Notes under the pieces: model-generated
Told to the model about the DNA's origin: nothing
What the model saw: only the letters and a program-made list of their open reading frames with translations
Databases searched by the model: none
Position numbers and translations under genes: made by a program
Shown here: positions 1 through 28,902 of the stretch, in pieces
Position numbering within the stretch: the stretch's first letter is position 1
Layout: each line of letters starts with the position of its first letter
Assembly (NCBI GenBank): GCA_036270315.1
Contig: DATBCS010000035.1
Span: 1 to 47,020, forward strand
DNA from: Gemmatimonadales bacterium
GTDB lineage: Bacteria; Gemmatimonadota; Gemmatimonadetes; Gemmatimonadales; GWC2-71-9
DNA length: 47,020 bases
Reading direction: 5' to 3'

Positions 1-493
1 GATCGACGAGGATGCTCAACGTGGACGACGACACGAAGTCCTGGACGGTGTCGACGTCGTCCGTCATCGTGCTGAGGAGCAGTCCGGTCTGGTGGGTGTC
101 GTAATAGTTGAACGAGAGGCGTTCGACGTGGTCGTACACCCGCATTCGCAGGTCGTTGGCCACCCACTGCCCCACGCTCTCCGTGTAGTAGTTATCGACG
201 TAGGAGGCAACGCCGCCGACGACGGCGAGCAGCACGAGTCCAAGCGCCGCCGCCCCCGCAAGCGCCATCCCGTTGGCGGTCAGCGCCGGGCCGAGCAGCC
301 GGACGACCCACGCCGGAACAGATTGCTGCCCGACCGCATAGTCGATGACGATTTTCAGCGGCCACGGCCCTGCGAGACTGGCGGCCGTCTCGACCAACAT
401 GGCCAGCAGGATGGTGACGAACCACACCCGGTACGGACCGGCGAGCTCGAGCACGAGGCGCGCCGTCCCTGTCGGCGACCTGTTACGCTTCAT
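1..493 (-). CDS. ABC transporter, fused permease/ATPase type (MsbA-like exporter), N-terminal part; partial, continues past the left edge
   Basis: Absent from the ORF track because there is no stop in the window. Reverse complement from ATG 493-491 reads MKRNRSPTGTARLVLELAGPYRVWFVTILLAMLVETAASLAGPWPLKIVIDYAV...DLRMRVYDHVERLSFNYYDTHQTGLLLSTMTDDVDTVQDFV. This is a typical ABC exporter transmembrane-domain N-terminus. Confidence 0.8.
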   Translation of the reverse strand, partial: MKRNRSPTGTARLVLELAGPYRVWFVTILLAMLVETAASLAGPWPLKIVIDYAVGQQSVPAWVVRLLGPALTANGMALAGAAALGLVLLAVVGGVASYVDNYYTESVGQWVANDLRMRVYDHVERLSFNYYDTHQTGLLLSTMTDDVDTVQDFVSSSTLSILVD

Positions 494-759
494 CGCGGTC
501 ATGTGAAGAACACGCCCTCGCGACCCTCGGCGCCCAGGCGAAGATCACCCGGGCTATCCGTCGCGTTCCGTACCGCTCGACGGATGGTGGCGCGGCCTTC
601 CGCGCCAAGGTATGACGAGCAGCGGTCGGGCGCAGGCGCACGGTTCGCTGCGAGGCGATGCCAGGTCCGCCTCCTCCGACCACACACGGTATTGCGCGCG
701 TCGGGCGTTCACCACGTGACCGCCACACTTGCGGCAGTGAATCGCCATCCGATTGCCCG

Positions 760-1158
760 TCAGACCAGCGAGGGGCATAGGTCGGTCACTCGTCCCGTCA
801 CTCGAACGCGAAACCCTGCACGCAGGTAGACGCGGGTCGCCTCCGGGCTTCGCGCGATGGCCGCGCTCACGGTATTCCCCGGCGCGAGCAACGCAAACCC
901 AGCCTCCGCCGCCGACGGACGCATGCCAGGGCCGAAGCCGGCGAGATCGAGCCGCTGGACCCGGATCGGAGCGGTCCAACGCCTTGCCGCGCCCGCGACG
1001 GAGTTCCCACAACAGATTCGCATCGTCTGCACAGAGTCCTCGACTTGCCGCAGTCCCGTGAGCAGCAACCAGCCCCCGATGCCGATCACCATGCAGATTC
1101 CGGCGAGTCGTCCGAATGGCGACTTGGGCGATGCCCGTGAGAACGCGAAGCGCTTCAC
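760..1158 (-). CDS. hypothetical protein (weak GNAT-like C-terminal motifs)
   Basis: In-frame GTG at 1158, 9 nt after the ALDH stop; the track ORF 760..1257 overlaps the ALDH 3-prime end. Third-position GC is moderately high. GIGGWLL and ATRVYLRAGFRV loosely resemble GNAT motifs, but no N-terminal half is present. Weak call. Confidence 0.25.
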   Translation of the reverse strand: MKRFAFSRASPKSPFGRLAGICMVIGIGGWLLLTGLRQVEDSVQTMRICCGNSVAGAARRWTAPIRVQRLDLAGFGPGMRPSAAEAGFALLAPGNTVSAAIARSPEATRVYLRAGFRVRVTGRVTDLCPSLV

Positions 1159-1166
1159 ATCGTGGC

Positions 1167-2639
1167 CTAGAACGGGTATTGGCGCTGACCTGAGTGCGCA
1201 TTGATCCAGATCATGTCGCTGAAGTCGTCGAGGCTGCGTGGACCCGTACGGCCCCAACCACTATCCCGGACTCCCCCCATCGGGGCATGAATCTCGTCAT
1301 TGACGGTCGGTGAATTGACGTTCACGATTCCAGCAAGCACCTTCGGCGCCATCTCGAACGCCTTGTATGTATTCCCAGCCAGAATCGAAGACGTGAGGCC
1401 GTACAAGGTGCGGTTCGCGGCGGTGATCGCTTCTTCCGCTGTATCAACAACTTCGACGACGACGACCGGTCCGAACGTTTCCTCGTTAGCGATAGCCGCG
1501 TCCAGCGGGACGTCGGTCAAAATCGTCGGGAAGTAGATCTGACCCTCGTACCTCGCGCCCGTGTGCACCTTGGCTCCCCTGGCGACAGCCTCCTTCACGC
1601 GGTCGTCAATCATCTTTACCGCATCACGGGTGATGATCGGACCGATAATGGTCTTTGGGTTCAGGGGATCACCTGCGGGCAGACCATTGGTCCGGGCCAC
1701 GAACTTCCCGAGAAACTCCTGGTAAATCTTGCGCTGAATGATGATGCGTCGTGTATTCAGGCAGATCTGGCCCTGATGAAAGAAGGATCCGAACGTCGCG
1801 GTGCGGACTGCATAATCGACGTCTACGTCGTCGAGAATGATCATCGGATTGAAACCGCCGAGCTCCAGCACGGTGCGCTTCAAGGTTCGGCCAGCGCGCT
1901 CCGCCAGCAGGCGTGCGGTCTTGACTCCCCCGATCAGATTTATGACGCGCACTTCAGGACGATCGAAGAACTCGTCCGCGATGGCAGCCGCGGTCCCTGG
2001 CGCATGCGTCACAACGTTGATCACTCCTGGAGGGAACCCCGCCTCTTCAGCGACCTCGGCGACCATGATCCCGGCCGAGACCGGAGCGAACTCGGATGGC
2101 TTGACTACTACGGTATTTCCAGCCGCGACTGGCGAAATTACCGCCCGCCACGAGAGGACGTTGGCTCCGTTCCACGGCGTGAAACAGGCGACGACGCCCA
2201 GCGGACGCCGAACGCCGACGGAATGGGTGCCTCGTAGATTCGTCTCGAGAACTTCGCCTTTGGGGAGATATACCCAGCCCGCGACCTGCTGGAGCGTTGC
2301 TGCGACCAGGTCCTGCTGGAAGGTCGCGAATGAAATGGTCGATCCAGTTTCACGCGCCAGCACCTCGGCGATCTCGCTGCGCCGGCGCCTGACGATTGCC
2401 GCAGCGTTCAGGAATAGACGCGCTTTGTCCGCCGGTGGGGTTTCCGACCATCCGCTGAACGCTCGTGCCGCAGCGTCGACTGCGACGCGCGCATCAGCGC
2501 CAGAGCCTGCCGCGACACGGGCGAAGAGCTCTCCGCTGAACGGCTCGCGGACCTCAAAGACGTGGTTGTCCTCGGTCTGTCGCCACTGGTTACCAGCGAA
2601 ATAGCCGTATTCTTTGACATCGACTGGTGTGGCGGTCAT
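1167..2639 (-). CDS. NAD(P)-dependent aldehyde dehydrogenase
   Basis: Track ORF 1167..2714 trimmed to ATG 2639 (MTATPVDVKEYGY...), which has GGGAGA 8 nt upstream. ALDH hallmarks are present: VLELGGFNP (catalytic Glu region), FHQGQICLNTRR (catalytic Cys) and FTPWNGAN. Confidence 0.9.
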   Translation of the reverse strand: MTATPVDVKEYGYFAGNQWRQTEDNHVFEVREPFSGELFARVAAGSGADARVAVDAAARAFSGWSETPPADKARLFLNAAAIVRRRRSEIAEVLARETGSTISFATFQQDLVAATLQQVAGWVYLPKGEVLETNLRGTHSVGVRRPLGVVACFTPWNGANVLSWRAVISPVAAGNTVVVKPSEFAPVSAGIMVAEVAEEAGFPPGVINVVTHAPGTAAAIADEFFDRPEVRVINLIGGVKTARLLAERAGRTLKRTVLELGGFNPMIILDDVDVDYAVRTATFGSFFHQGQICLNTRRIIIQRKIYQEFLGKFVARTNGLPAGDPLNPKTIIGPIITRDAVKMIDDRVKEAVARGAKVHTGARYEGQIYFPTILTDVPLDAAIANEETFGPVVVVEVVDTAEEAITAANRTLYGLTSSILAGNTYKAFEMAPKVLAGIVNVNSPTVNDEIHAPMGGVRDSGWGRTGPRSLDDFSDMIWINAHSGQRQYPF

Positions 2640-2710
2640 GAACTCATCTCCCGCAATCCTGCTCGATCGTCTGGTCCGCCGCTGGTACACGATGAACGCG
2701 AGCCTGGGTG

Positions 2711-2801
2711 GCAATTACCGGACCAGTTGCAAAGCGTTGCAATGAGAGATCTTGTGATGGGAAGCGGTGGCGAGTTTTCGACGCTGGTGAAATGCTGGAC
2801 A
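2711..2801 (-). promoter_or_regulatory. sigma-54 promoter module A (-24/-12 element plus three-hexamer upstream array) driving the aldehyde dehydrogenase gene
   Basis: Minus strand: TGGTCCGGTAATTGC at 2725-2711, with GG and GC at consensus spacing, 72 nt upstream of ATG 2639. Upstream array TGTCCA(2801-2796)-gcatt-TCACCA(2790-2785)-gcgtcgaaaac-TCGCCA(2773-2768). Gap from the last hexamer to TGG is 42 nt. Confidence 0.7.
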
Positions 2802-2875
2802 ATCCGCAACGTTCTGGCACCCACCTTTGTTCGGCAGTCCGCGCGCCGTGCGGGGGCCCGTGCGGCCCAACACTG

Positions 2876-3010
2876 TCCCGACTAACGGCTCCCGGACTTC
2901 GAAGAGGTGGTTATCCCCTGCCTCGCCACTGGTTATCGACGAAGAGCCGTATTCCTTGACATCGACTTGCGTTGTCCATGAACGGATCTCGCGCAGTCTT
3001 GCAGATCGCC
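2876..3010 (-). pseudogene. decayed duplicate of the aldehyde dehydrogenase 5-prime UTR plus about the first 35 codons
   Basis: Nucleotides 2886-2979 align with 2541-2639, and 2980-3008 with 2640-2670, at roughly 80 percent identity by eye. The duplicate includes its own ATG (2979-2977). It reads ..VDVKEYG...DNHLFEVREP versus PVDVKEYGYFAGNQWRQTEDNHVFEVREP in the intact gene. Small indels put its ATG out of frame with the conserved peptide. Confidence 0.75.
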
Positions 3011-3045
3011 TTCGCCATGGATGGGTGTCGGCTGGAGGACAAGGG

Positions 3046-3789
3046 CTAACGGCTTGCCTTTTCATCGGGCGACACCATGGCAACGAAGTCCTCATTGCTG
3101 AGGACATGCGACCACAGGGTGTACACGCTATTCAGCATCATCTCAGACAGCGGTTGCGTATACGCCGCCATGGACTCCTTGAGCGCATAGACGTGGTAGC
3201 CGAGATCATACCCGGCCGTCACCGTCGCATAGGCGCACACGTCGACGGTGAACCCGGCAACGGCGATGTTTTTGATCCCGCGTGAGCGAAGAATCTCATT
3301 CAAGCCGGTTCCGCCAAAAGCCGAACTCTGGATGCGCGGCGCCAAAATCAGGTCCTTGTCATTCGGTCCGGGAGCCAGCGGGGGATAGGAAGCGGCCTTC
3401 GGCGTGCCGGTCTTGAAGGCCTGCGCTAGCATTCCATACCGATGAAAAGCGCCAGGATTAGTGGGGTCGAGCTCGCGATAATCGCTCGTGTAGCCCTCAG
3501 TAACGTGGATGATCCAAACGCCGAGCTCACGCGCTTTCTTGACTAACGTGACGGTCCGATCCAGCATCCCACCTTCAATGTCTTTTTTCACCGCGCCGTA
3601 GCTGCCGCCCGCCGGATTCGTGAACGGGTATTGGAAATCGACAAGAATAAGCGCGGTTTCGGTCGGCTTGAGATGCGTTTCAAGTGGTGGGAGCTGGGCC
3701 TGCGCGTCTGTTGCCACACACAGCGACGTCGCCAGCAACATCATCACGAAAGCGCGGCTGGCCCTGCAGATTTTCGCGTCATTGGGCAT
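3046..3789 (-). CDS. isochorismatase-family (cysteine hydrolase) protein with N-terminal signal peptide
   Basis: Track ORF 3046..3885 trimmed to ATG 3789 (MPNDAKICRASRAFVMMLLATSLCVATDAQAQ, signal-like). Family hallmarks: LILVDFQ (Asp), a VTLVKKAREL region (Lys) and AGFTVDVCAYATV (Cys). Confidence 0.85.
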   Translation of the reverse strand: MPNDAKICRASRAFVMMLLATSLCVATDAQAQLPPLETHLKPTETALILVDFQYPFTNPAGGSYGAVKKDIEGGMLDRTVTLVKKARELGVWIIHVTEGYTSDYRELDPTNPGAFHRYGMLAQAFKTGTPKAASYPPLAPGPNDKDLILAPRIQSSAFGGTGLNEILRSRGIKNIAVAGFTVDVCAYATVTAGYDLGYHVYALKESMAAYTQPLSEMMLNSVYTLWSHVLSNEDFVAMVSPDEKASR

Positions 3790-3880
3790 GTGTGGTGACC
3801 TCGAGGTTGGAATGGGGCAGACCGCGTCGCGGAACAGTTGAGAGCTCCCCCCGCGCCCGGAGATGAACAAGAGCTGAGAC

Positions 3881-3971
3881 AGCAATTACCGGACCAGTGC
3901 AAGGCCCTGAGATCACAGCTTTTGTAGACGCGAGCCCTGGCGAGTCTTCGCCGCTGGTGAAATGCTGGACA
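3881..3971 (-). promoter_or_regulatory. sigma-54 promoter module B driving the secreted isochorismatase-family gene
   Basis: Minus strand: TGGTCCGGTAATTGC at 3895-3881, the same 15-mer as module A, 92 nt upstream of ATG 3789. Array TGTCCA(3971-3966)-gcatt-TCACCA(3960-3955)-gcggcgaagac-TCGCCA(3943-3938). Gap to TGG is 42 nt. Confidence 0.7.
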
Positions 3972-4008
3972 ATCAACCGGCGTTCGGCGTGACGGCTCGC
4001 AAATCCTC

Positions 4009-4968
4009 CTATCGTGAGCGGCCGCGGAGTCTCTCAGCGAGAAAAGTTCCTATGGCATCGAGCGCCTCCCCAGCCGCCTTAACAGCGCCAACACTGATGA
4101 CAAAGCCGTGCGGCATTCCCATCCACACGTCGAGCCGTGCGTCGACGCCTGACGCCAACGCCCGCTCGACATATCGCCGGGAGTCGTCGAGGAGTATTTC
4201 GTCATCGCCAACATGAATCTGTAGCGGAGGAAGCGCCGCTAGCGGCGCGTAGAGCGGTGAGGCCCGCGGGTCCTTAGGATCTGCCTTTCCTAAGTAGGAG
4301 TGCACCAAATCCGCAGCTTGTGCTTTGGTGAAGTACGGGTCGGAGGCCGCGCGGGTCTCGTATGTCTCTCCCGACAGTGTGAGGTCAGTAATCGGTGAGA
4401 CCGCCGCTATTCCAACAAGGCGCGCCCCGTCGGCATTTGGATCTGCGCTGACTTGTGAAGCGAGCGCGAGGGCGAGATTACCCCCGGCTGAGTCTCCGGT
4501 AACAACCAGTCGGCGCTTGTCTCCTCTAAGGGCGCCGTAGCAAGCCACCACATCATTGATCGCTGCCGGAAATGAGTGCTCGGGCGCCAGTCGGTAGTCG
4601 GGAACAAAGGCATCGGTGCTCGCTCTGTCCGCGATGTGTGCGACGAGATGACGGTACGCGGTCGCGGTCCCAAAATTGAACCACCCGCCGTGCAGGTGCA
4701 GCAGCGCGGTTGCGGCGTCACTTGAGCGGGCGCGAACCCAAAGCCCCGGCACCCCTCCGACGACGTCGGGTTCGAAGGTGACGCCCGCACGCGGTACAAC
4801 ACGTTCCATCAAGGCGTCGTAGGGAACCCGCGCATTAACACCACGTAAGGCACCCTTCGCTGCGCGCGCCTGCACTCGGATCGCGTCCATGATGGCACTG
4901 TCCTCTGGGGTGACCGGATGAACTACGACCTTGCTTGCGGCCACGCTCCCACTCTTTACACCCTTCAT
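4009..4968 (-). CDS. alpha/beta hydrolase fold-3 esterase/lipase (hormone-sensitive-lipase family)
   Basis: HGGW oxyanion motif (LHLHGGWFNFG), GDSAGG nucleophile elbow and a C-terminal MPHGF His region. Start set to ATG 4968, with AAGGAG 6 nt upstream; the track start at 4989 is a GTG. Confidence 0.88.
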   Translation of the reverse strand: MKGVKSGSVAASKVVVHPVTPEDSAIMDAIRVQARAAKGALRGVNARVPYDALMERVVPRAGVTFEPDVVGGVPGLWVRARSSDAATALLHLHGGWFNFGTATAYRHLVAHIADRASTDAFVPDYRLAPEHSFPAAINDVVACYGALRGDKRRLVVTGDSAGGNLALALASQVSADPNADGARLVGIAAVSPITDLTLSGETYETRAASDPYFTKAQAADLVHSYLGKADPKDPRASPLYAPLAALPPLQIHVGDDEILLDDSRRYVERALASGVDARLDVWMGMPHGFVISVGAVKAAGEALDAIGTFLAERLRGRSR

Positions 4969-5062
4969 CCCAGCTCCTTTATGGACCACCGCGCTCTAGT
5001 GAGACTCAGACCGCCTAATCGGCGAACCGTCTCCTTCATCAGAGTTCTGAGGGGTACTCTCT

Positions 5063-5758
5063 TCACGACGCGCTTCTGGCTTCATTGTCCAACTCCCACG
5101 CCAGAACGGCACCCGAGGCGCCGGCGTGCTCGAAGAGTATCTGTGCCACCTCTCCAAGCTTTTCCGTGCGCGCCCAATCACGCTGTAGCTCTCCGGCCAT
5201 CCCCAACCACGTGATTGGCTGGACACCGGCGGCTACCAGGCGACGGATGGCCATGTCATGCGCCTCTGCGGACACACCGCCAGAGGCATCGGTGACGGCA
5301 TAAACGTCGTAACCGTCACCCATGGCATGGATCGCGGGTTGCGCAAGACACATCTCGGACCACAGCGCAGCAATGACCAGCTTCTTTCGGCCGGTCCTCT
5401 TCACGGCCTCGACAACGCGCCGGTCCTCCCAAGCATTGATAAAGCTGCGGTCGATAGGCTTCTGATCGGGGAACACAGCCTGGAGTTGCTTGATGATGGC
5501 CCCACCGCGGTTCGCGCCGATCGTAGTGAGAATCGTCGGGACTCCGAACGTCTTGGCAGTCCTGGCAAGACCCGTCACGTTGTTAACCACCATGGTTGGC
5601 TCATGGCTGTTCACATTTGCCAGCTGAGACGGCTGATGATCGATCAGGAGAAGGACGCAGTTGTCGGGGGTGAGGAGTGCATCGAGGCCGACCCTCGTAA
5701 ACGTCTGCATAGTCAGTGTGATTCCTCTTTTCGTTGTGGTCTGCGTACGCTTCGTCAT
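5063..5758 (-). CDS. isochorismatase-family hydrolase, YcaC-like
   Basis: VLLLIDHQP, PTILTT, INAWED, KKLVIAALWSEMCLAQPA (Cys) and VYAVTDASGG are collinear with my recollection of E. coli YcaC. ATG 5758 overlaps the upstream stop (ATGA). An alternative ATG lies at 5707. Confidence 0.85.
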   Translation of the reverse strand: MTKRTQTTTKRGITLTMQTFTRVGLDALLTPDNCVLLLIDHQPSQLANVNSHEPTMVVNNVTGLARTAKTFGVPTILTTIGANRGGAIIKQLQAVFPDQKPIDRSFINAWEDRRVVEAVKRTGRKKLVIAALWSEMCLAQPAIHAMGDGYDVYAVTDASGGVSAEAHDMAIRRLVAAGVQPITWLGMAGELQRDWARTEKLGEVAQILFEHAGASGAVLAWELDNEARSAS

Positions 5759-5988
5759 ATGACGGTCAGATGTACTGCTCTCGCACGCCTGCGTACCCGT
5801 TGAGCTGCGTTCACGTGGCGGCCTGGTGAGAAATCGTCTCCCGCGACGGTCACCGTTCCCGTGACATCACTGAAGCGACCTCGCACCGTCGCAATCATCA
5901 GATGTCTCACCGCGAACTCGACGTTCGAGTGGACTGAATCGATCTGCCACATGGTCTTGTTGGACGCTGCGGCTTGCATCGCTGCCAT
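5755..5988 (-). CDS. YceI-like N-terminal fragment (77 aa, truncated relative to the roughly 170-190 aa family)
   Basis: WQIDSVHSNVEFAVRHLMIATVRGRFSDVTGTVTV matches the first strands of YceI-like lipid/polyisoprenoid-binding proteins, and similarity then stops. GGAGG lies 6 nt upstream of ATG 5988. The stop overlaps the next start (ATGA). Confidence 0.5.
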   Translation of the reverse strand: MAAMQAAASNKTMWQIDSVHSNVEFAVRHLMIATVRGRFSDVTGTVTVAGDDFSPGRHVNAAQRVRRRARAVHLTVI

Positions 5989-6057
5989 TCAAACCTCCAC
6001 CAAGTGCTCGGTGCACTGCGGCACGGCGCTAGCATGTAGAGATGATCCGAGGATCTA

Positions 6058-6150
6058 GCAATAGCCGGTCCATCTCATAAGTTGTTGACATCAAACGATG
6101 TCCTAGTCGATCACGACTGGCGATAATTCGACAATGGCGAATTCTGGACA
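6058..6150 (-). promoter_or_regulatory. sigma-54 promoter module C driving the YceI-fragment, YcaC-like and esterase genes, divergent from the regulator gene
   Basis: Minus strand: TGGACCGGCTATTGC at 6072-6058, 70 nt upstream of ATG 5988. Array TGTCCA(6150-6145)-gaat-TCGCCA(6140-6135)-ttgtcgaatta-TCGCCA(6123-6118). Gap to TGG is 45 nt. Confidence 0.7.
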
Positions 6151-6175
6151 GAGGGCAGACTTGGAGAGGCGATCA

Positions 6176-8728
6176 ATGGACCAGCCATTTGAAATACAGC
6201 TGCGAGCCATGCTTGACATGATTCCGGCGCACACGTGGTACGCAGCGCCCTCGGGCGCCCTCCTCTTCGTCAACCAACGGAGCGCGGAATACCTTGGCCT
6301 CGCGCAGGATCACCCACTTCGGCTCGGAACCGACACCGCTGCGGCTTGGGATTCCCATCTCTCGTCGTTTCTGCATCCGGACGATCAGGAAGCCACCGGG
6401 AAAGCCTGGTCAGAGTGCTTACGTACTGGCTGCCCTGGTGAAGCGAGTTTTCGAGTCCGCGACTGCGAAGGCAATTACCGTTGGTTCCTGAGTCGCGCGG
6501 CGCCTCTCCGGGGGAACGACGGAACGGTGCTCTACTGGATCGGCATCACTCTCGACATCGAAGAACACAAGCAGGCCGAGTTTCAACTTCGGCGGGGCAA
6601 GGCGCATTTGGCAGATGCGCAAAGACTCAGCCGGACCGGAGCTGTCGGAATCGCAGTAAGCACGAAGCGGCTATTCTGGTCCGATGAAGCGGCTCGGATT
6701 TATGGGTACCCTCCGGGAACGGAACCCACGCCTGATTTGATACTGCAAAGATCTCATCCTGACGATTTGGATCTTCTCAAAGACGTTCTTCAGCGTGCGG
6801 CGCAGGGTGGCAGCGCCTTCGACTTTGAGCATCGGTTGCTGATGCCCGACGGCTCGATAAAGCACCTTCATGATCTTGCACATGGCCTTAAGGACGAAGC
6901 AGGCAATGAAGAAATTGTCGGCGCGATCATGGATGTCACGGAACGTAAGGTTGGGGAGGAAGCGATACGGCGAAGCCAGGCGTATCTGGCCGAAGCCCAA
7001 AACCTCAGCCATACAGGCAGCTTCGGGTGGAAAGTTTCCAGCGGGGAGATCTTCTGGTCTGAAGAAACGTTCCGAATATTCCAATGCGATAGAACCACCA
7101 CACCGACGGTGGAATTTGCCCTTTCGCGAGTCCATCCGGCGGACCGGGATCTCGCACAGCAACTAGTCGACCGCGCATCCGGTCACGGTGAGGCGTTCGA
7201 CGTCGAGCTTCGGCTCCAATTGCCCGACGGCTCTGTCAAGCATGTCCGTGTGACCGCCCATCCCACCCACGATACCTCGGGCAACCTTGAGTTCATAGGA
7301 GCAGTTACCGATGTCACAGAGCAAAAGCAGTTAACCAAAGCGTTGCGCGAGAGTGAGATGGAGCTCAGACAAACGCTGGATTTCGCGCCACAACTGATCT
7401 GTGTCTTCGGACCCCACTTCCGGCCCCTATACGCCAACCGCGCCTGTCTTGAGTATGCCGGCGTCAGCGTCGACGAGTGGAGGCAGGGCGAACCCCACAC
7501 TCATCCTGACGATCTCGAACGGATTAAGCCGCTTGCAGAGCGGGCGTTATTGACCGGCATGCCCTTCGAAGCGGAACAACGCATACGGCGTAGCGATGGA
7601 AGCTACCGCTGGTTTCTCGCTCGGTACAATTCGGTGCGCGACGACGACGGCCAGATGATTCGCTCGTACATCGCCTGCACCGATATCGACGATCGCAAGC
7701 GCGCTGAGGAGCGGTTGCGAGAGGAAAACGTGGCGCTCCGCGAGGAAATTGACAAAGCATCGATGTTCGAAGAGATCGTTGGCGGGTCGCCAGCGCTGAC
7801 GGCCGTGCTCTCGCGCGTCTCTAAGGTCGCAAGCAGCGATTCGACCGTTCTCATCACCGGTGAGACCGGCACCGGAAAAGAGCTCCTGGCGCGAGCTATT
7901 CACCGGCGATCCAAACGCGCCTCCAGAGCTTTCGTGGCCGTAAACTGCGCGGCCATTCCGCGCGATCTGATCGCGTCTGAACTCTTCGGTCACGAAAAGG
8001 GAGCATTCACCGGCGCCACCCAGCGGCGGCTGGGCCGGTTCGAGCTGGGGGACGGCGGCACGATCTTCCTGGATGAAATTGGCGAATTGTCACTTGAGAT
8101 GCAGATCGCGTTCTTGCGCGTCCTCCAAGAGCGAGAATTCGAGCGCGTGGGAGGACAGGAGCGGATCCGGATTGATGTTCGTGTCATCGCCGCAACCAAT
8201 CGTGACCTGACGGCTGCGGTCGCCGAGGGCGCCTTCCGCCAGGATCTCTTCTACAGGCTCAATGTGTTCCCTGTCGAGATGCCATCTCTCCGAGTGAGGC
8301 AGGATGATATTCCCGTCTTGGTGGAGTACTTTATCGGCCGTTACGCTCGGAAGGCAGGGAAGACTTTCCGGCGCGTAAGCAAGAAGACCCTGGACCAGCT
8401 GCAGGCGTATCCGTGGCCCGGCAACATTCGAGAGTTACAGAACGTAATTGAACGATCGGTGATCGTCTCTGACACCGAGGACTTTCAGGTGGACGAGAAC
8501 TGGCTGTCCGCAAAGCCCCGAATGGACAGTCGGCTCGGCCTGGCCGGCGCCGTAGCAGCTCAGGAGAAGGCGCTCATCGAAGATGCTTTGGGCGCGAGCG
8601 GCGGACGTGTGTTCGGGCCTTCAGGAGCGGCTGCGCGATTGGGGGTTCCTCGTTCCACCCTCGAATCGAGAATCAGAGCCCTGAAGATAGACAAGGCTCG
8701 TTTTCGTGCGGGAGCCACGCGCTCGTGA
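6176..8728 (+). CDS. sigma-54-dependent transcriptional activator (bacterial enhancer-binding protein) with four N-terminal PAS domains
   Basis: AAA+ sigma-54 interaction module: Walker A GETGTGKE, the diagnostic GAFTGA loop (EKGAFTGA), Walker B TIFLDEIG and WPGNIRELQNVIE. C-terminal Fis-type HTH (AARLGVPRSTLESRIRALKI). Four PAS-like repeats each end in a DVTE/DIE-type motif. Start set to ATG 6176 with GGAGAGG 7 nt upstream; the track ATG 6134 would lie inside upstream array C. Confidence 0.92.
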   Translation: MDQPFEIQLRAMLDMIPAHTWYAAPSGALLFVNQRSAEYLGLAQDHPLRLGTDTAAAWDSHLSSFLHPDDQEATGKAWSECLRTGCPGEASFRVRDCEGNYRWFLSRAAPLRGNDGTVLYWIGITLDIEEHKQAEFQLRRGKAHLADAQRLSRTGAVGIAVSTKRLFWSDEAARIYGYPPGTEPTPDLILQRSHPDDLDLLKDVLQRAAQGGSAFDFEHRLLMPDGSIKHLHDLAHGLKDEAGNEEIVGAIMDVTERKVGEEAIRRSQAYLAEAQNLSHTGSFGWKVSSGEIFWSEETFRIFQCDRTTTPTVEFALSRVHPADRDLAQQLVDRASGHGEAFDVELRLQLPDGSVKHVRVTAHPTHDTSGNLEFIGAVTDVTEQKQLTKALRESEMELRQTLDFAPQLICVFGPHFRPLYANRACLEYAGVSVDEWRQGEPHTHPDDLERIKPLAERALLTGMPFEAEQRIRRSDGSYRWFLARYNSVRDDDGQMIRSYIACTDIDDRKRAEERLREENVALREEIDKASMFEEIVGGSPALTAVLSRVSKVASSDSTVLITGETGTGKELLARAIHRRSKRASRAFVAVNCAAIPRDLIASELFGHEKGAFTGATQRRLGRFELGDGGTIFLDEIGELSLEMQIAFLRVLQEREFERVGGQERIRIDVRVIAATNRDLTAAVAEGAFRQDLFYRLNVFPVEMPSLRVRQDDIPVLVEYFIGRYARKAGKTFRRVSKKTLDQLQAYPWPGNIRELQNVIERSVIVSDTEDFQVDENWLSAKPRMDSRLGLAGAVAAQEKALIEDALGASGGRVFGPSGAAARLGVPRSTLESRIRALKIDKARFRAGATRS

Positions 8729-8734
8729 AGTGAT

Positions 8735-8825
8735 TGGTCAGGATTTCACCACTGGGGAACATTCGTACGTTTGCCTCTCGCACAACCCGCGCCATCTCCA
8801 TCACATGGGGTGGCCCGCCAGTTGC
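8735..8825 (+). promoter_or_regulatory. sigma-54 promoter module E upstream of the STAS gene
   Basis: Plus strand: TGGCCCGCCAGTTGC at 8811-8825. Degenerate array with the same architecture: TGGTCA(8735-8740)-ggatt-TCACCA(8746-8751)-ctggggaacat-TCGTAC(8763-8768). Gap to TGG is 42 nt, as in A and B. The GC element is only 15 nt before ATG 8840. Confidence 0.55.
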
Positions 8826-8839
8826 ACTACAGCGCAGCT

Positions 8840-9106
8840 ATGTCGTTGCTAAAGATCCAGCGTACGGCGGGTCGAACGGTCGTGTTCACCGTCAGCGGGT
8901 GCCTCGACACGGACAACGTGGACGAGCTCTGCCAATTGATTGATGCAGAACCGGTCGGTGCCGTTGTCACTCTCGACCTAACTGACTTGGTTTTGGCGGA
9001 TCGTGACGCGGTGCGCTTACTGCGCGACCGCGAAAGCGATGCGCGCGTCCTGCTTCGAAACTGTCCCGCATACATCCGTGCTTGGATGGCCTCCCAGGAA
9101 GACTGA
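8840..9106 (+). CDS. STAS-domain protein (anti-sigma-factor-antagonist-like)
   Basis: Track ORF 8771..9106 trimmed to ATG 8840. MSLLKIQRTAGRTVVFTVSGCLDTDNVDELCQLID...VTLDLTDLVLADRDAVRLL has the layout of a small STAS/SpoIIAA-like protein. Confidence 0.65.
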   Translation: MSLLKIQRTAGRTVVFTVSGCLDTDNVDELCQLIDAEPVGAVVTLDLTDLVLADRDAVRLLRDRESDARVLLRNCPAYIRAWMASQED

Positions 9107-9243
9107 CGAACCCTGGCACTAAACGCCCCCTGCCAACCGAGGCGGTTCTCGCGTTAAGCAGCGATTGTCCAGGAGATGGTCCGTTGGCACCGCTTGTGAG
9201 GCGTCGACCCCCGCTTCAATCGCTCGCGCGGGCTCCTCTGAAC

Positions 9244-9347
9244 TGTCCAGCCGTTCGCCACTGACGGTATCTCGCCAGCGCGGCAGCCCCGGAAATCGCT
9301 TTCGATGCAAGAACTTGGAGCATGACGGTCATTGGCACCTTCGTTGC
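9244..9347 (+). promoter_or_regulatory. sigma-54 promoter module D upstream of the DoxX gene
   Basis: Plus strand: TGGCACCTTCGTTGC at 9333-9347, a near-perfect consensus, 146 nt upstream of ATG 9493. Array TGTCCA(9244-9249)-gccgt-TCGCCA(9255-9260)-ctgacggtatc-TCGCCA(9272-9277). Gap to TGG is 55 nt. An extra GATTGTCCAG 10-mer, identical to that in A and B, lies at 9163-9172. Confidence 0.7.
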
Positions 9348-9492
9348 TACTACGGCGGGTAACTCCCTCGAGGGGCCCAACACCGGTGCGTTGGAAACCC
9401 CGCAAACGCTCCAGGCGAGCGTTGCGCGACGAGGGACGACGGCGGGCGTGGATTTGAAGACATAGCCATCCAATTAAGAGCGGAGACTAATC

Positions 9493-9906
9493 ATGTCGTT
9501 CCCACAATCAGTCACCAAAACATCCCCAGTCCTGCGCGGTCGTGCCGCGCGCATCACTCTCTGGGTTATCCAAATTGCGCTCGCCGGAATGTTCCTTATG
9601 GCCGGCGGCTCCAAGCTCTTCGGCGCCAAGGATATGGTTGTGCTGTTCGATCAGGTCGGCGTCGGCCAGTGGTTTCGCTACGTCACGGGGTTGATCGAAG
9701 CTGGTGCGGCGCTTGCCCTGTTCGTCCCTTCGTTGGCGGTGTTCGGTGCACTGGCACTCGTCGCGACGATGTTGTGTGCGGTCGTGGCGCAGATCTTCAT
9801 CATTCATCAGTCCCCTGTACCGCCAGCGATCTTGCTACTCGCCGCCGCAGCCGTCGTCTGGGCCCGTCGGGATGAGCTTCTCCGCCGCCAGCCGACGGTG
9901 CGCTAA
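9493..9906 (+). CDS. DoxX-family inner-membrane protein
   Basis: 137 aa with four predicted TM segments. GMFLMAGGSKLFG, WFRYVTGLIEAGAALAL and the overall size are typical of DoxX. Confidence 0.8.
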   Translation: MSFPQSVTKTSPVLRGRAARITLWVIQIALAGMFLMAGGSKLFGAKDMVVLFDQVGVGQWFRYVTGLIEAGAALALFVPSLAVFGALALVATMLCAVVAQIFIIHQSPVPPAILLLAAAAVVWARRDELLRRQPTVR

Positions 9907-9920
9907 ACACCCCAACCCGC

Positions 9921-10361
9921 GTGCCCCGTCCACCCATGAGCTCATGGCGACGTCGATCAGTCTGGTTCAGCCGGTTCGTTTTAGGCGGAGCGACCCTAAT
10001 GATGGCCCGCCTCGGCACAGGGAACGTCCTTGACCCCATCGGGGATGCGAGCAAGCGCAACATGACCCTCACCTCACCAGATGCGATTACGGTCATGCGC
10101 GTCCAGGGCGGCCTCGTCGTGGGCTTCGCGGCAATTCTGGCCTTCTGCGTGGTGTCCGAGCGACGACTGCTTGCCGGTCTGGGGGTCCTCGCAACGATCA
10201 GCGCCGCGATTGCCGGAACCCGGGTTTTGGGCTTGGCACTCGATGGCCCCGGGACGTTCACGCTGATGGTTGTGAAACCGGAAGTCATTCTCGCGGTCTT
10301 GTCGACGCTCGCTCTTTTCTTGGAATGGCGAAGGTCTCGGGCTGGCGCGCGTCAGCTTTGA
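9921..10361 (+). CDS. hypothetical membrane protein (about four hydrophobic segments)
   Basis: ORF starts 15 nt after the DoxX stop. Hydrophobic stretches include VQGGLVVGFAAILAFCVV, LAGLGVLATISAAIAG and VILAVLSTLALFL. The start is ambiguous (GTG 9921 or ATG 9936). Confidence 0.5.
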   Translation: MPRPPMSSWRRRSVWFSRFVLGGATLMMARLGTGNVLDPIGDASKRNMTLTSPDAITVMRVQGGLVVGFAAILAFCVVSERRLLAGLGVLATISAAIAGTRVLGLALDGPGTFTLMVVKPEVILAVLSTLALFLEWRRSRAGARQL

Positions 10362-10398
10362 ATGCGGCGAGCTCCCTTCCGCGCCTGCGCCTCAAGGA

Positions 10399-10452
10399 AG
10401 TGTTACTGATGGGCCTGAGTGGAGTTGAACCACTGACCTCACGCTTATCAGG
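10399..10452 (-). repeat. 54-bp direct repeat copy 1: orphan 3-prime part of tRNA-Ile (anticodon loop to 3-prime end) plus 11 nt of flank; att-like
   Basis: agtgttactgatgggcctgagtggagttgaaccactgacctcacgcttatcagg is identical, base for base, to 12796-12849. The tRNA 5-prime half is absent here. Confidence 0.9.
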
Positions 10453-10460
10453 ACTCCGAC

Positions 10461-10577
10461 GCACGCCAACCAGCGCCAGCCAGCGCCAACCAGCGCCAGT
10501 TTTTCGCGGCATCCGCCAATGGGCGCAAACCAGCGCCAACCAGCGCCAACTAGAGTTGGCACCACATTGGCACCACA
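10461..10577. repeat. helically phased decamer repeats (two blocks of CAGCGCCAAC-like units) followed by two inverted-sense 11-mers
   Basis: 10461-10500: gcacgccaac cagcgccagc cagcgccaac cagcgccagt. 10511-10550: atccgccaat gggcgcaaac cagcgccaac cagcgccaac. 10556-10577: ttggcaccaca ttggcaccaca. No credible ORF covers them. Confidence 0.85.
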
Positions 10578-10742
10578 GCCTCTGTCGCGACAGCGACACG
10601 AGGGTGCGGAGAGATTTTCAACCTCGCGGCGCCGACCTACTGTGGCAGAGGCTGGTACTTATCCAACCAGCTCAGGATTTCTTGGATCAGCCTACCTATC
10701 TTGCCGGACACCTTGTGTTACCTATCTCCCCGGCTGCTCAGC

Positions 10743-11312
10743 TTATGTAATCATGTGAAGGTCGCAACGACGAACCTTCCAGATCGGCCCTTCGCGCGCA
10801 ACCCGACATTTGTGCGTTGTCGCGAAGCCGAGATACCGCGTCCACGACGTGTCACCCTGTTGAGAACGGCTTCCCTGCCCTACAAAAATGACGACTGCGG
10901 TGTCACCGAGAGGAATTGGTCGTGAGAGCCGAAGCTCGCCGCCCGCAGAGTCAGCCTGGCACCTAGGCACTTCGTTGCTTGAGTCAAGGGGCGCGCAGAC
11001 CTCAGTCACAATTTCATGACTTAGGAGGTAAGCGACAACCGTATCTGGAAGGCGACCGGAAGCTTCATAAGTGGCCGAATCAGACATCAGGTGGCGCTCG
11101 AGCGCGAGCCGGTGACGGTAGCGCAGCAACCCGGGTGCGCTTAACGCAGCGGCGTAGGCGGGTACGGGGTCGACAACAGTCGCGCGCTGCTCCAGACGGC
11201 AGTCCGCCGCGGCGATTGTGAGAAGGACGGGGAGGCCGTAGCGCCAAGTAGCGCGCGAGTTACGAATGCACATCGGACTGGCTCTCGGGTGGGGCCCGAC
11301 AAAATGGTACAC
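10743..11312 (-). CDS. hypothetical protein
   Basis: ORF only; lower-GC segment; no recognisable motifs. The track start is a GTG; an internal ATG at 11273 gives MCIRNSRATWRYGLPVLLTIAAADC... Confidence 0.3.
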   Translation of the reverse strand: MYHFVGPHPRASPMCIRNSRATWRYGLPVLLTIAAADCRLEQRATVVDPVPAYAAALSAPGLLRYRHRLALERHLMSDSATYEASGRLPDTVVAYLLSHEIVTEVCAPLDSSNEVPRCQADSAGGELRLSRPIPLGDTAVVIFVGQGSRSQQGDTSWTRYLGFATTHKCRVAREGPIWKVRRCDLHMIT

Positions 11313-12795: not shown

Positions 12796-12880
<85 letters not shown>

Positions 12881-27336: not shown

Positions 27337-28902
27337 ATGTTCACCACGGTAGCCGTGCTCGGCGTACTCACGATCGCCGGAGGGGCGCCCGCCGGCGCAC
27401 CTGCGGCGCTGGCCACCCGCGCCCGCGTCCAGGTCTGGACCAATCGGGGCGAGGACCCGTATGCGACCGGGCAGTCGGTGCGGGTCTACTTCCGGACCGA
27501 CCAGGACGCCTACGTCACGATCCTGCGGGTCGACACCGATGGGCGCGTGCGCGTCCTGTTTCCGCGCGACCCGTGGGACGACAATTTCGCGACCGGTGGC
27601 CGCGAGTACGAGGTCCTGGACCGGTTCGAGCGACCCGCGTTCGAGATCGACGACTATCCGGGTGAGGGCTACATCTTCGCGGTGAGCGCCCCCGATCCTT
27701 TCGTCTATGACGGCATCAAGAGTGACGACCACTGGGACTACCGGGTGATCGCCGACGGGCGGGTACGCGGCGACCCCTACGTCGCCCTGACCGATCTGGC
27801 GCAGCGCATCGTGCCCGACGGCTACAGCGATTGGGACTACGACATGGTCCCCTACTACGTCCAGCAGCACTACGCCTACCCCCGGTTTCTGTGCTACGAC
27901 TGCCACGCCTACGCGAGTTATCCGTACTGGAGTGCGTACGACTACACCTGCGTTCGCTTCCGGATGGTCGTGTACGACGATCCCTACTACTACCCCTACG
28001 CCTACGGGGGCACACAGGTGGTGTTCACGCGGCCGTTGCGGCCCGAGCCGCGCTTCATCTTTAAGGACCGGCAGTCGGGCGATGCCTTCATCACGCGCGT
28101 CCGCGCGCGGCCGGTGAGCGGCGGCGTGGGGGTGCGGGGGCGGGACCTCGGCGGTACGGGCGTCATCCCGCGGCCGCGCGGCGGTCGTCCTGGCGGCGGC
28201 GACCAGGGCGGTGGCGGTCAGCCAGACCACCCGCGGGATCGTGGGCAGCCCGATCGGCCGGACCAGGGTCGGGATCGGTCCGATCAGCGGTCGCATCCCG
28301 ATCGGCCGGACCAGCCAGGCCGTGACCGGTCCGATCAGCGGTCGCATCCCGATCGGCCGGACCAGCCGGGCCGTGACCGATCCGACCAGCGGTCGCATCC
28401 CGACCGGCCCAATCAGCCGGGCCCCGATCGGTCCGATATGCGGTCGCATCCCGACCGGCCCAATCAGCCGGGTCCCGATCGGTCCGATCAGCGGTCGCAT
28501 CCCGACCGGCCCAATCAGCCGGGCCCCGATCGGTCCGATCAACGGTCTCGTCCGGATCGGCCGGACCAGTGGCGCGGCGCGCTGCGTCCCGATAACTCGA
28601 CCGTCCCCAACCGCCCTGACCGTCCAGCGGTAGGGGACCGGCCCAGCCGTGTCGACCGCCCGAGCGACCGCTTCGACGGCGGCGGGCCCGCGGCGCGGCC
28701 CGGACGCGACAACACGCCTGACGTCGGCCGCCGGTCGGCGCCGGCTCCGGAGTTCCGCCGCGAGCCCGCGCCGCCGCCGCCGGCCGCGCCGCGGAACGAG
28801 CCGCGCGTCGAGCGCGCGCCCGAGCCACCGCGCGAACGGCCTGCGCCGCCGTCTCAGCCAGCGCCGCGCGGCGAACCTGAGCTCAAGCGCCGCAAGCCGT
28901 AG
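27337..28902 (+). CDS. secreted DUF4384-like protein with a Tyr/Cys-rich middle and a tandem 17-aa repeat, Pro/Arg-rich C-terminal region
   Basis: Track ORF trimmed to ATG 27337, preceded by GAGGGGAGG. Signal-like MFTTVAVLGVLTIAGGAPAGAPAALA; VRVYFRTDQDAYVTILRVDTDGRVRVLFP resembles DUF4384; the C-terminal part carries (RSDQRSHPDRPDQPGRD)n. Confidence 0.7.
   Translation: MFTTVAVLGVLTIAGGAPAGAPAALATRARVQVWTNRGEDPYATGQSVRVYFRTDQDAYVTILRVDTDGRVRVLFPRDPWDDNFATGGREYEVLDRFERPAFEIDDYPGEGYIFAVSAPDPFVYDGIKSDDHWDYRVIADGRVRGDPYVALTDLAQRIVPDGYSDWDYDMVPYYVQQHYAYPRFLCYDCHAYASYPYWSAYDYTCVRFRMVVYDDPYYYPYAYGGTQVVFTRPLRPEPRFIFKDRQSGDAFITRVRARPVSGGVGVRGRDLGGTGVIPRPRGGRPGGGDQGGGGQPDHPRDRGQPDRPDQGRDRSDQRSHPDRPDQPGRDRSDQRSHPDRPDQPGRDRSDQRSHPDRPNQPGPDRSDMRSHPDRPNQPGPDRSDQRSHPDRPNQPGPDRSDQRSRPDRPDQWRGALRPDNSTVPNRPDRPAVGDRPSRVDRPSDRFDGGGPAARPGRDNTPDVGRRSAPAPEFRREPAPPPPAAPRNEPRVERAPEPPRERPAPPSQPAPRGEPELKRRKP
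28225..28581 (+). repeat. in-frame 51-bp tandem repeat, six near-identical units plus one degenerate leading unit
   Basis: Units begin at 28276, 28327, 28378, 28429, 28480 and 28531 (cggtccgatcagcggtcgcatcccgatcggccggaccagccaggccgtgac and variants). The period of exactly 51 nt equals 17 codons. Confidence 0.9.

Follow-up and report, generated by a model that had tools for sequence, protein, structure and literature searches.

In Escherichia coli, the sigma-54-dependent systems PspF-pspA and NorR-norVW share a layout in which the activator gene is divergent from its target operon and the enhancer lies over the promoter or leader of the activator gene, implying autoregulation. NorR uses three adjacent activator sites and senses nitric oxide via a GAF domain. 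In the psp system, integration host factor (IHF) participates, and PspF, an activator devoid of a sensor domain, is under feedback from the small regulated protein PspA, which does not belong to the STAS proteins. In the syp locus of Vibrio fischeri, the STAS protein SypA sits with the sigma-54 activator SypG. Here we describe a locus within a 47,020-nucleotide (nt) stretch of DNA from a Gemmatimonadales bacterium (contig DATBCS010000035.1; hereafter the window), in which the gene of a sigma-54 activator (enhancer-binding protein) lies among five -24/-12 promoters, each led by a copy of the same upstream array. It is likely that the activator and its five enhancer-led promoters constitute a self-contained sigma-54 regulon.

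The architecture of this locus is that of a textbook sigma-54 system, namely enhancer, presumed bend site, -24/-12 promoter and divergent activator gene. As in the classical units (NifA/nifH, FhlA/hyc-fdhF and XylR/Pu), a GG-N10-GC promoter has an upstream activating sequence within about 100 bp; the bend site that lies between the two in those units would have its counterpart in an IHF-like block. The activator also resembles the classical NtrC-family proteins in combining a sensory N-terminus, an AAA+ domain with the GAFTGA motif and a Fis-type helix-turn-helix (HTH). The enhancer of the family to which the window belongs contains a 17-19 bp dyad like the classical sites. However, its motif, TCGCCA-n-TGGCGA, is unrelated to those of PspF and NorR and differs from TGT-N10-12-ACA, the motif reported for FhlA, NifA and many Clostridiales activators (PMC6615313). 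In comparison with the classical units, the family adds TGTCCAG and TCGCCA boxes of the same orientation at fixed distances around the dyad, and its enhancer-promoter gap is short and almost invariant (41-44 nt). The features that go beyond the routine are this composite enhancer, the loss of one dyad arm in the window lineage and the recurrence of a small STAS protein (mini-STAS) as a target.

The first-pass annotation of the window had proposed five sigma-54 sites with exact GG-to-GC spacing, each preceded by one shared array. All five sites and all five arrays are present. Two details had to be corrected, since promoter B is located at 3882-3896 and not at 3881-3895, and the distance from its last hexamer to TGG is 41 nt and not 42; the distances given for A, C, D and E hold. 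The promoters and arrays are the following.

2711-2725, minus strand: promoter A, TGGTCCGGTAATTGC, a TGG-N8-TTGC match 71 nt 5' of the start codon of an aldehyde dehydrogenase (ALDH) gene
3882-3896, minus strand: promoter B, a 15-mer identical to that of A (TGGTCCGGTAATTGC), serving a secreted isochorismatase-family gene, 92 nt to the start codon
6058-6072, minus strand: promoter C, TGGACCGGCTATTGC, divergent from the activator gene, 69 nt to the start codon
9333-9347, plus strand: promoter D, TGGCACCTTCGTTGC, a perfect copy of the consensus, 145 nt 5' of DoxX
8811-8825, plus strand: promoter E, TGGCCCGCCAGTTGC, 14 nt 5' of the mini-STAS ATG
2768-2801, minus strand: array A, TGTCCAG-ca-TTTCACCA-g-CGTCGAAAAC-TCGCCA, gap to TGG 42 nt, right dyad arm with 2 mismatches
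3938-3971, minus strand: array B, gap to TGG 41 nt, right arm CGGCGA with 1 mismatch
6118-6150, minus strand: array C, a 33-nt form whose first spacer is 4 nt, gap to TGG 45 nt, ending 26 nt from the activator start codon
9244-9277, plus strand: array D, gap to TGG 55 nt
8735-8768, plus strand: array E, the weakest copy, with box 1 TGGTCAG and box 3 TCGTAC, gap to TGG 42 nt

All five promoters fit TGG-N8-TTGC (equivalent to GG-N10-GC), and each lies on the same strand as, and 5' of, a gene; promoter C leads to the YceI fragment, a second isochorismatase gene and an esterase gene (unit C). The -24 elements in the window vary between TGGTCC, TGGACC, TGGCAC and TGGCCC. The reverse complement of box 1, TGGACA, looks like the family -24 element TGGACC. 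Relative to the inferred transcription starts, the arrays are situated at about -69 to -102. Boxes 1-3 are perfect at A-D. Array E begins 7 nt past the activator stop codon, which is the most frequent array position in the family, and reaches a matrix score of 20.8 as against a shuffle maximum of 9.5, a score inflated at the positions that the search pattern had fixed in the matrix.

The promoter motif taken singly has 10 matches to TGG-N8-TTGC in the window (4.2 +/- 2.0 expected; 1 of 100 shuffles reached 10), and the five matches other than A-E are without an array. Upstream, TGTCCA-N4-5-TCRCCA occurs four times with 0.00 expected, and TCRCCA-N11-TCGCCA finds those same four places, A-D. The full array-plus-promoter pattern of the first-pass annotation matches exactly five places, far above background frequency in the window: the analytic expectation per window is 1.6e-4 arrays and 1.8e-7 combined matches, and 500 shuffles gave a mean of 0.002 arrays and 0 combined matches. 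A sixth array-like match at 2243-2276 (plus strand; score 19.7) is located inside the ALDH gene on the opposite strand with no promoter downstream, and was rejected; its likeness to the array stems from PKGEVLET, a protein motif conserved in the orthologues as well. Rfam returned only a tRNA over the whole window, so that the conserved blocks are not a known RNA. A scan of 2500-10900 for sigma-70 promoters and terminators found none for the activator gene, but its counts were at or below chance and it is uninformative on the promoters of the organism itself.

The same cassette is found in other genomes. A genome scan with the array pattern of the first-pass annotation, in which the 11-nt spacer was left free, returned at least 118 loci. 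Ninety-nine of them, distributed over unrelated taxa, lack a downstream promoter; among the matches listed, the other 19 carry TGG-N8-TTGC or a close variant 40-47 nt downstream. These 19 loci belong to Acidobacteriota (including Vicinamibacterales), Gemmatimonadota and four Pseudomonadota records, one of which is the isolate Paraburkholderia oxyphila NBRC 105797 (L033). In the isolate, a full cassette directly 3' of the activator gene drives an acetoacetate-decarboxylase-family protein (PF06314). An activator homologue adjoins the array at 18 of the 19 true loci as against 1 of the 99 chance loci. Short contigs of metagenome-assembled genomes (MAGs) may carry incorrect taxonomic labels; neither the P. 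oxyphila record nor the synteny analysis below relies on such labels.

A metagenome scan, for which only box 1 and the dyad served as the query, gave at least 120 loci (109 of them non-redundant) on contigs whose names look soil-derived. Box 3 (gATcTCGCCA), which was unused in the query, reaches up to 1.5 bits in the 109 sites. TGG-N8-YTGC follows the array in 81 of the 109, with gaps of 41 nt (13 sites), 42 nt (15), 43 nt (43) and 44 nt (6), and the family promoter consensus is TGGACCggcAATTGC. Activator homologues are present in 67 of the 120 mostly short metagenome loci listed and in 29 of the 43 of those that are at least 4 kb long. Forty-three arrays begin within 80 nt past the 3' end of an activator gene and 18 are divergent from one. 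The cassette is thus conserved with fixed geometry across at least 130 loci. At one of them (L075, 5664-5849), two tandem arrays lie 152 nt apart; downstream of the second, and before an activator paralogue, the -24/-12 element has lost 1 nt (TGGACCGCAATGGC), and this promoter may have been inactivated.

Orthologous genes keep the cassette. It is retained at the ALDH orthologues in L016 and L026 (87-88% protein identity), at the secreted isochorismatase orthologue in L079 (86% identical), at the DoxX orthologue in L079 (gap 42 nt) and at YceI and esterase orthologues in L014 and in metagenome loci. These promoters preserve the array, the spacing and the -24/-12 elements while their spacers diverge. 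Within the window, the 34-nt arrays of A and B differ at 2 positions and their promoter 15-mers are identical, whereas the intervening 41-42 nt have visibly diverged. The earlier proposal that selection acts on the boxes, as opposed to a recent copy, is borne out by both comparisons, and the check it had suggested, for conservation of the array at homologous loci, gave a positive result.

The family consensus reads gT-TGTCCAG-nA-TTTCGCCA-t-TGGCGArAT-c-TCGCCA, followed by 41-44 nt that include an IHF-like block and then by TGGACCggcAATTGC. The first-pass annotation had considered the array a direct-repeat design, unlike the palindromic enhancers of NtrC type. This is wrong for the family, because the 11-nt spacer that was left free hides an inverted arm. 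Exact TGGCGA is present within it at 17 of the 19 related genome sites among the matches listed, and it pairs with the middle hexamer to give a 17-19 bp dyad, TTTCGCCA-n-TGGCGAAA, of the size usual for dimers of Fis-type HTH domains. As judged from the alignment, therefore, the family enhancer is a classical dyad flanked by two further boxes of the same orientation. In order, it consists of a TGTCCAG box, then, one helical turn on, the dyad ATnTCGCCA-n-TGGCGAnAT, and then a TCGCCA box in the same orientation.

The three same-orientation hexamers are nonetheless real, and 'three direct boxes' is an accurate description of the lineage formed by the window and L079, the closest related locus. At each of the five window sites the right arm deviates in 1-2 positions, and at both L079 sites in 2-3, so that the inverted arm carries 1-3 mismatches at 7 of 7 sites, with boxes 1-3 perfect in 5 of these 7. 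In contrast, the right arm is exact in 17 of 18 sites found likewise in genomes other than L079. By this comparison, the direct-repeat layout appears to be a derived state, specific to the window lineage, that differs from the family design. Drift has affected the right arm and the spacers but not boxes 1-3 and the -24/-12 elements, which remain perfect; this argues against simple decay and suggests that function resides mostly in the three forward boxes.

Between the enhancer and the promoter, the family has an A/T-rich, IHF-like block, TTTAGATTCA-N4-CTTG. Across the 109 non-redundant metagenome sites it appears as cTTTagATTCAnnnnCTTg immediately 5' of the -24 element, and in the 81 promoter-anchored sites ATTCAR-N4-TTR, preceded by TTT, is conserved at -17 to -5 relative to TGG. 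In the window the block is recognisable at B, C and D, ambiguous at A and absent at E. The three assignments below were made by comparison with the family consensus.

3899-3916, minus strand: candidate IHF-like block of unit B, TGTGATCTCAGGGCCTTG, which fits TTTAGATTCA-N4-CTTG with a 1-nt insertion
6078-6097, minus strand: candidate IHF-like block of unit C, TTTGATGTCAACAACTTA
9300-9318, plus strand: candidate IHF-like block of unit D, TTTCGATGCAAGAACTTGG

The block of unit D keeps its distance to the array and not to the promoter. The gap of 55 nt at this site equals the modal 43 nt plus about one helical turn, and the extra bases are located between the block and the -24 element, as would be expected if the face of the helix matters. 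This block suggests a role for IHF at the cassette. The near-fixed gap of 41-44 nt would then favour a sharply bent loop that depends on the face of the helix, and such a loop could let the oligomerised AAA+ domain, through its GAFTGA loop, remodel the sigma-54 holoenzyme.

The activator itself is encoded in the middle of these sites.

6176-8728, plus strand: enhancer-binding protein, 850 amino acids (aa) from the ATG at 6176, with four PAS domains, an AAA+ sigma-54 interaction domain and a C-terminal Fis-type HTH

Pfam assigns four PAS_3 stretches, Sigma54_activat and HTH_8 to the protein. The AAA+ domain (PF00158) is matched at E = 2.5e-72, with Walker A GETGTGKE at residue 562 and GAFTGA at residue 609. 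The HTH (PF02954) scores 22.4 bits against a cut-off of 22, and the alignment to ZraR spans it. The closest solved relatives are CapR, ZraR, NifA and NtrC1, and a homologue search gave 6,981 proteins at E <= 1e-50 among 8,000 candidates. By these matches, the activator is a standard NtrC-family protein and is predicted to be cytoplasmic. It had been proposed as the only sigma-54 activator in the window, and indeed no other activator homologue is encoded there. The HTH is conserved in 120 homologues, with the sequence GRVFGPSGAAARLGIPRSTLESKIRALKINK / GRVFGPSGAAARLGVPRSTLESRIRALKIDK kept across the family.

In our model, the 850-aa activator would bind, via its C-terminal Fis-type HTH, the 33-34 bp enhancer located about 70-100 bp 5' of each promoter. 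The linkage of array and activator gene makes the local activator the candidate reader of the array. In divergent layouts (window site C, L016, L026 and L079), the array ends 20-26 nt from the activator start codon, which makes autoregulation likely, and the activator probably limits its own transcription through array C. Four variant cassettes (L051, L052, L082 and L117) have a dyad with a 2-nt centre (CCAATTGG), and all four adjoin activators with the HTH variant GRVYGPAGAA. This covariation between HTH and dyad hints, weakly, at the neighbouring activator as the binding protein. Several of the loci with a 2-nt centre have a second activator gene, about 43% identical, after the mini-STAS gene.

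Several observations weigh against a self-contained regulon led by these promoters. No RpoN box is encoded within the window. The IHF-like block departs from WATCAA at one consensus position throughout, reading ATTCAR, and its distance to the -24 element is unusually small. The inverted dyad arm is degenerate at every window site, and site E is without intact boxes 1 and 3 and without the block. Two gene remnants, the YceI fragment and a 5' piece of ALDH, are found in the locus, and these together with the degenerate arms and the weak site E could mean that it is partly decaying in a foreign host. Finally, many paralogous activators share a near-identical enhancer consensus, with up to three cassette loci per MAG (L050-L052), and the covariation of HTH and dyad concerns 4 sites from two MAGs only.

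One alternative builds on the degenerate arms, the weak site E, the gene remnants and the genomic surroundings of the locus. It holds that the window carries a horizontally acquired, partly decaying cassette whose donor cis-elements work poorly or not at all in the Gemmatimonadota host. The guanine-cytosine (GC) content is 60.7% over 1-10395 and 70.8% over 12881-47020. The high-GC part holds the housekeeping genes TypA, Mfd and LepA, of which TypA is 93-94% identical to Gemmatimonadetes MAG proteins, whereas the nearest relatives of the regulon genes are from Acidobacteriota MAGs, and the related cassette loci all have 59-64% GC. At the border of the two parts lies the following gene.

12807-12880, minus strand: tRNA-Ile(GAT), identified by Rfam

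Related chromosomes (L239-L242) are collinear with the window only up to 12799-12807, which is the 3' end of this tRNA. The difference in GC (61% versus 71%), the tRNA-Ile and the break in synteny indicate that the segment is strain-specific and probably horizontally acquired, so that the regulon probably resides on a foreign segment at a tRNA hot spot of a Gemmatimonadota genome. A perfect 54-nt direct repeat (10399-10452 and 12796-12849), made of the 3' half of tRNA-Ile plus 11 nt, flanks a 2.35-kb segment in the manner of att sites. The two main open reading frames between the repeats are without Pfam match and no integrase is recognisable among them. No third copy of the repeat or outer boundary is present in the window; the outer end would fall beyond coordinate 1. 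A comparable situation is reported for ICEMlSymR7A of Mesorhizobium loti, a mobile island with a nifA/rpoN2 sigma-54 regulon (PMC3538637). As in that island, activator and target promoters in the window probably travel together beside a tRNA gene in DNA of atypical GC. Unlike in ICEMlSymR7A, no integrase is visible in the window, and neither are transfer genes or an rpoN copy.

Foreign origin is in keeping with this alternative, as are the truncated YceI, the ALDH 5' fragment, the dyad arm that is degenerate throughout and the weak site E. However, neither the 850-aa activator nor any of the main target genes has a broken reading frame, and at A-D perfect boxes 1-3, -24/-12 elements and spacing stand beside diverged spacers, which is the opposite of neutral decay. 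L079, which is labelled Gemmatimonadota, keeps the same pattern. We therefore regard a non-working or poorly working cassette as quite unlikely.

According to a further alternative, promoters and arrays are genuine, but a protein other than the local activator recognises the array. This protein would be an activator paralogue from another locus or a DNA-binding factor of a different kind, and the local activator would be one of several inputs or irrelevant. Such a reading would accommodate the near-identity of the enhancer consensus over hundreds of loci with differing activator paralogues, several per genome, and the 14 of the 43 listed metagenome loci of at least 4 kb that have no activator gene nearby. 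It fits poorly with the linkage of array and activator (18/19 versus 1/99 among the matches listed), with the typical position of the array abutting the activator stop or start codon, with the conservation of the HTH, which is as strong as that of the motif, and with the single activator in the window. Reading by another protein is quite unlikely on this balance. Chance likeness or a recent local duplication without regulatory meaning has practically negligible probability and is already refuted. A and B do share a 15-mer and a near-identical array with an ALDH fragment between them, so that some local duplication did occur. However, only about 2e-7 combined matches are expected, sites C, D and E do not copy A or B beyond the boxes, and at least 130 further loci have the cassette in front of genes, some orthologous and some unrelated.

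If the five promoters are indeed served by the local activator, its targets would be the genes listed below.

1167-2639, minus strand: unit A, ALDH (Pfam)
3046-3789, minus strand: unit B, isochorismatase-family hydrolase with a signal-peptide-like N-terminus (Pfam)
5755-5988, minus strand: unit C, truncated YceI (Pfam)
5063-5758, minus strand: unit C, isochorismatase-family gene (Pfam)
4009-4989, minus strand: unit C, Abhydrolase_3 HSL-type esterase (Pfam)
9493-9906, plus strand: unit D, DoxX (Pfam)
9921-10361, plus strand: unit D, DUF4345 membrane protein (Pfam)
8840-9106, plus strand: unit E, mini-STAS protein of 88 aa, assigned from its predicted fold and the PF13466 of its homologues

Pfam agrees with the earlier calls of an ALDH, two isochorismatase-family hydrolases, an HSL-type esterase, a YceI fragment, DoxX and a membrane protein. 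The call of a STAS protein is likewise upheld: the window protein is sub-threshold in Pfam, its homologues carry PF13466 and the predicted fold is that of STAS proteins. Only Pfam positions 1-42 of 150 are left in the truncated YceI of 77 aa, which runs into the beginning of the gene after it; in relatives, the gene that immediately follows the cassette encodes an intact YceI of 185-189 aa. At 2880-2980 (minus strand), in the interval that separates array A from the secreted isochorismatase gene, a remnant of about 100 nt from the 5' end of ALDH persists, with ribosome-binding region and start codon; it is what remains of an earlier duplication or recombination event among units led by the cassette.

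The mini-STAS protein has 675 homologues, typically 70-80% identical, many of them with PF13466. Its structural model has a predicted local distance difference test score (pLDDT) of 83; the top PDB matches are STAS proteins at probability 1.00, and the Foldseek TM-scores (query-normalised) are 0.67-0.72 to 4hyl, 1vc1 and 1tid. It shares the STAS fold with SpoIIAA and RsbV, but is only 88 aa long and has the serine replaced (ADRDAV). There is no phosphorylatable serine at the SpoIIAA position, where the motif is LADRDAV with Ala-Asp-Arg invariant. No partner kinase or anti-sigma factor was seen among the annotated open reading frames (those of 1-12.5 kb and others annotated), although no search of the window was aimed at one.

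Among the 104 sites listed, the 88-aa protein forms the largest group of genes downstream of the cassette, with 16 sites matching the window protein in a cluster of 20. It is followed by SnoaL-like proteins and Alginate_exp outer-membrane proteins (11 each), Abhydrolase_3 (7), ALDH (6), Omp85-like outer-membrane proteins and short-chain dehydrogenases (5 each), YceI (4) and others; activator paralogues also occur, 6 of them matching the window activator in a cluster of 7. The 88-aa protein is driven by 18 of the 38 arrays that lie directly after an activator stop codon, and the weakest site of the window, E, thus occupies the most conserved position of the family. As in the syp locus, the gene of a STAS protein is linked to that of a sigma-54 activator, and here the mini-STAS itself would be the main target of the activator. 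Site E would drive the non-phosphorylatable mini-STAS, which probably feeds back on the activator. Such a modulation of the activator by the mini-STAS would be analogous to the feedback of PspA in the psp system. The outputs as a whole (oxidoreductases, hydrolases and envelope proteins) suggest the handling of a small molecule, and a catabolic or detoxification pathway switched by a PAS-sensed signal, as read from gene content, is plausible.

Two repeat regions lie outside the regulon. At 10454-10577, inside an open reading frame without Pfam match, phased tandem repeats of CGCCAACCAG (10-nt period; 3.5 and 2.8 copies) are accompanied by two copies of TTGGCACCACA. The GCGCCA/CGCCAACCAG repeats at 10454-10558 are superficially like box 3 and were considered as extra activator boxes, but are regarded as unrelated; they lie inside the att-flanked segment beside the tRNA repeat. 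The repeats of 10454-10577 may be arm-type recombinase sites. In the high-GC core, a tandem repeat with a period of 51 or 102 nt (6.4 or 3.2 copies, 82-87% matches) is present at 28245-28569 and is probably repetitive coding sequence.

Taking all parts together, one may picture that soil Acidobacteriota and Gemmatimonadota share a family of multi-PAS sigma-54 activators that is very large and works with one cassette of fixed geometry. Its commonest single output, the non-phosphorylatable 88-aa STAS protein, would bind back to the activator; in the window lineage the enhancer, its dyad arm lost, would work via three same-orientation boxes; and activator and cassettes would move between phyla as a plug-in regulon. 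This combined picture is speculative and rather unlikely to hold as a whole. The searchable literature contains no description of the motif, of the regulon of this activator family (sigma-54 in Acidobacteria included) or of a STAS partner of a sigma-54 activator. If the picture is true, the STAS feedback would be an undescribed, phosphorylation-independent partner-switch layer on sigma-54 activators, and individual HTHs from different dimers of the hexamer, and not one dimer on a palindrome, would read the DNA.

The conceptual value of the finding is modest. What it offers is a cis-regulatory code, from the enhancer and presumed bend site to the promoter and its spacing, for a family of activators, abundant and so far uncharacterised, of the soil-dominant Acidobacteriota and Gemmatimonadota, phyla with almost no experimentally defined regulons. 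P. oxyphila NBRC 105797 is a cultured carrier of the cassette and a possible experimental model, and the motif allows the targets of these activators to be predicted straight from metagenomes.

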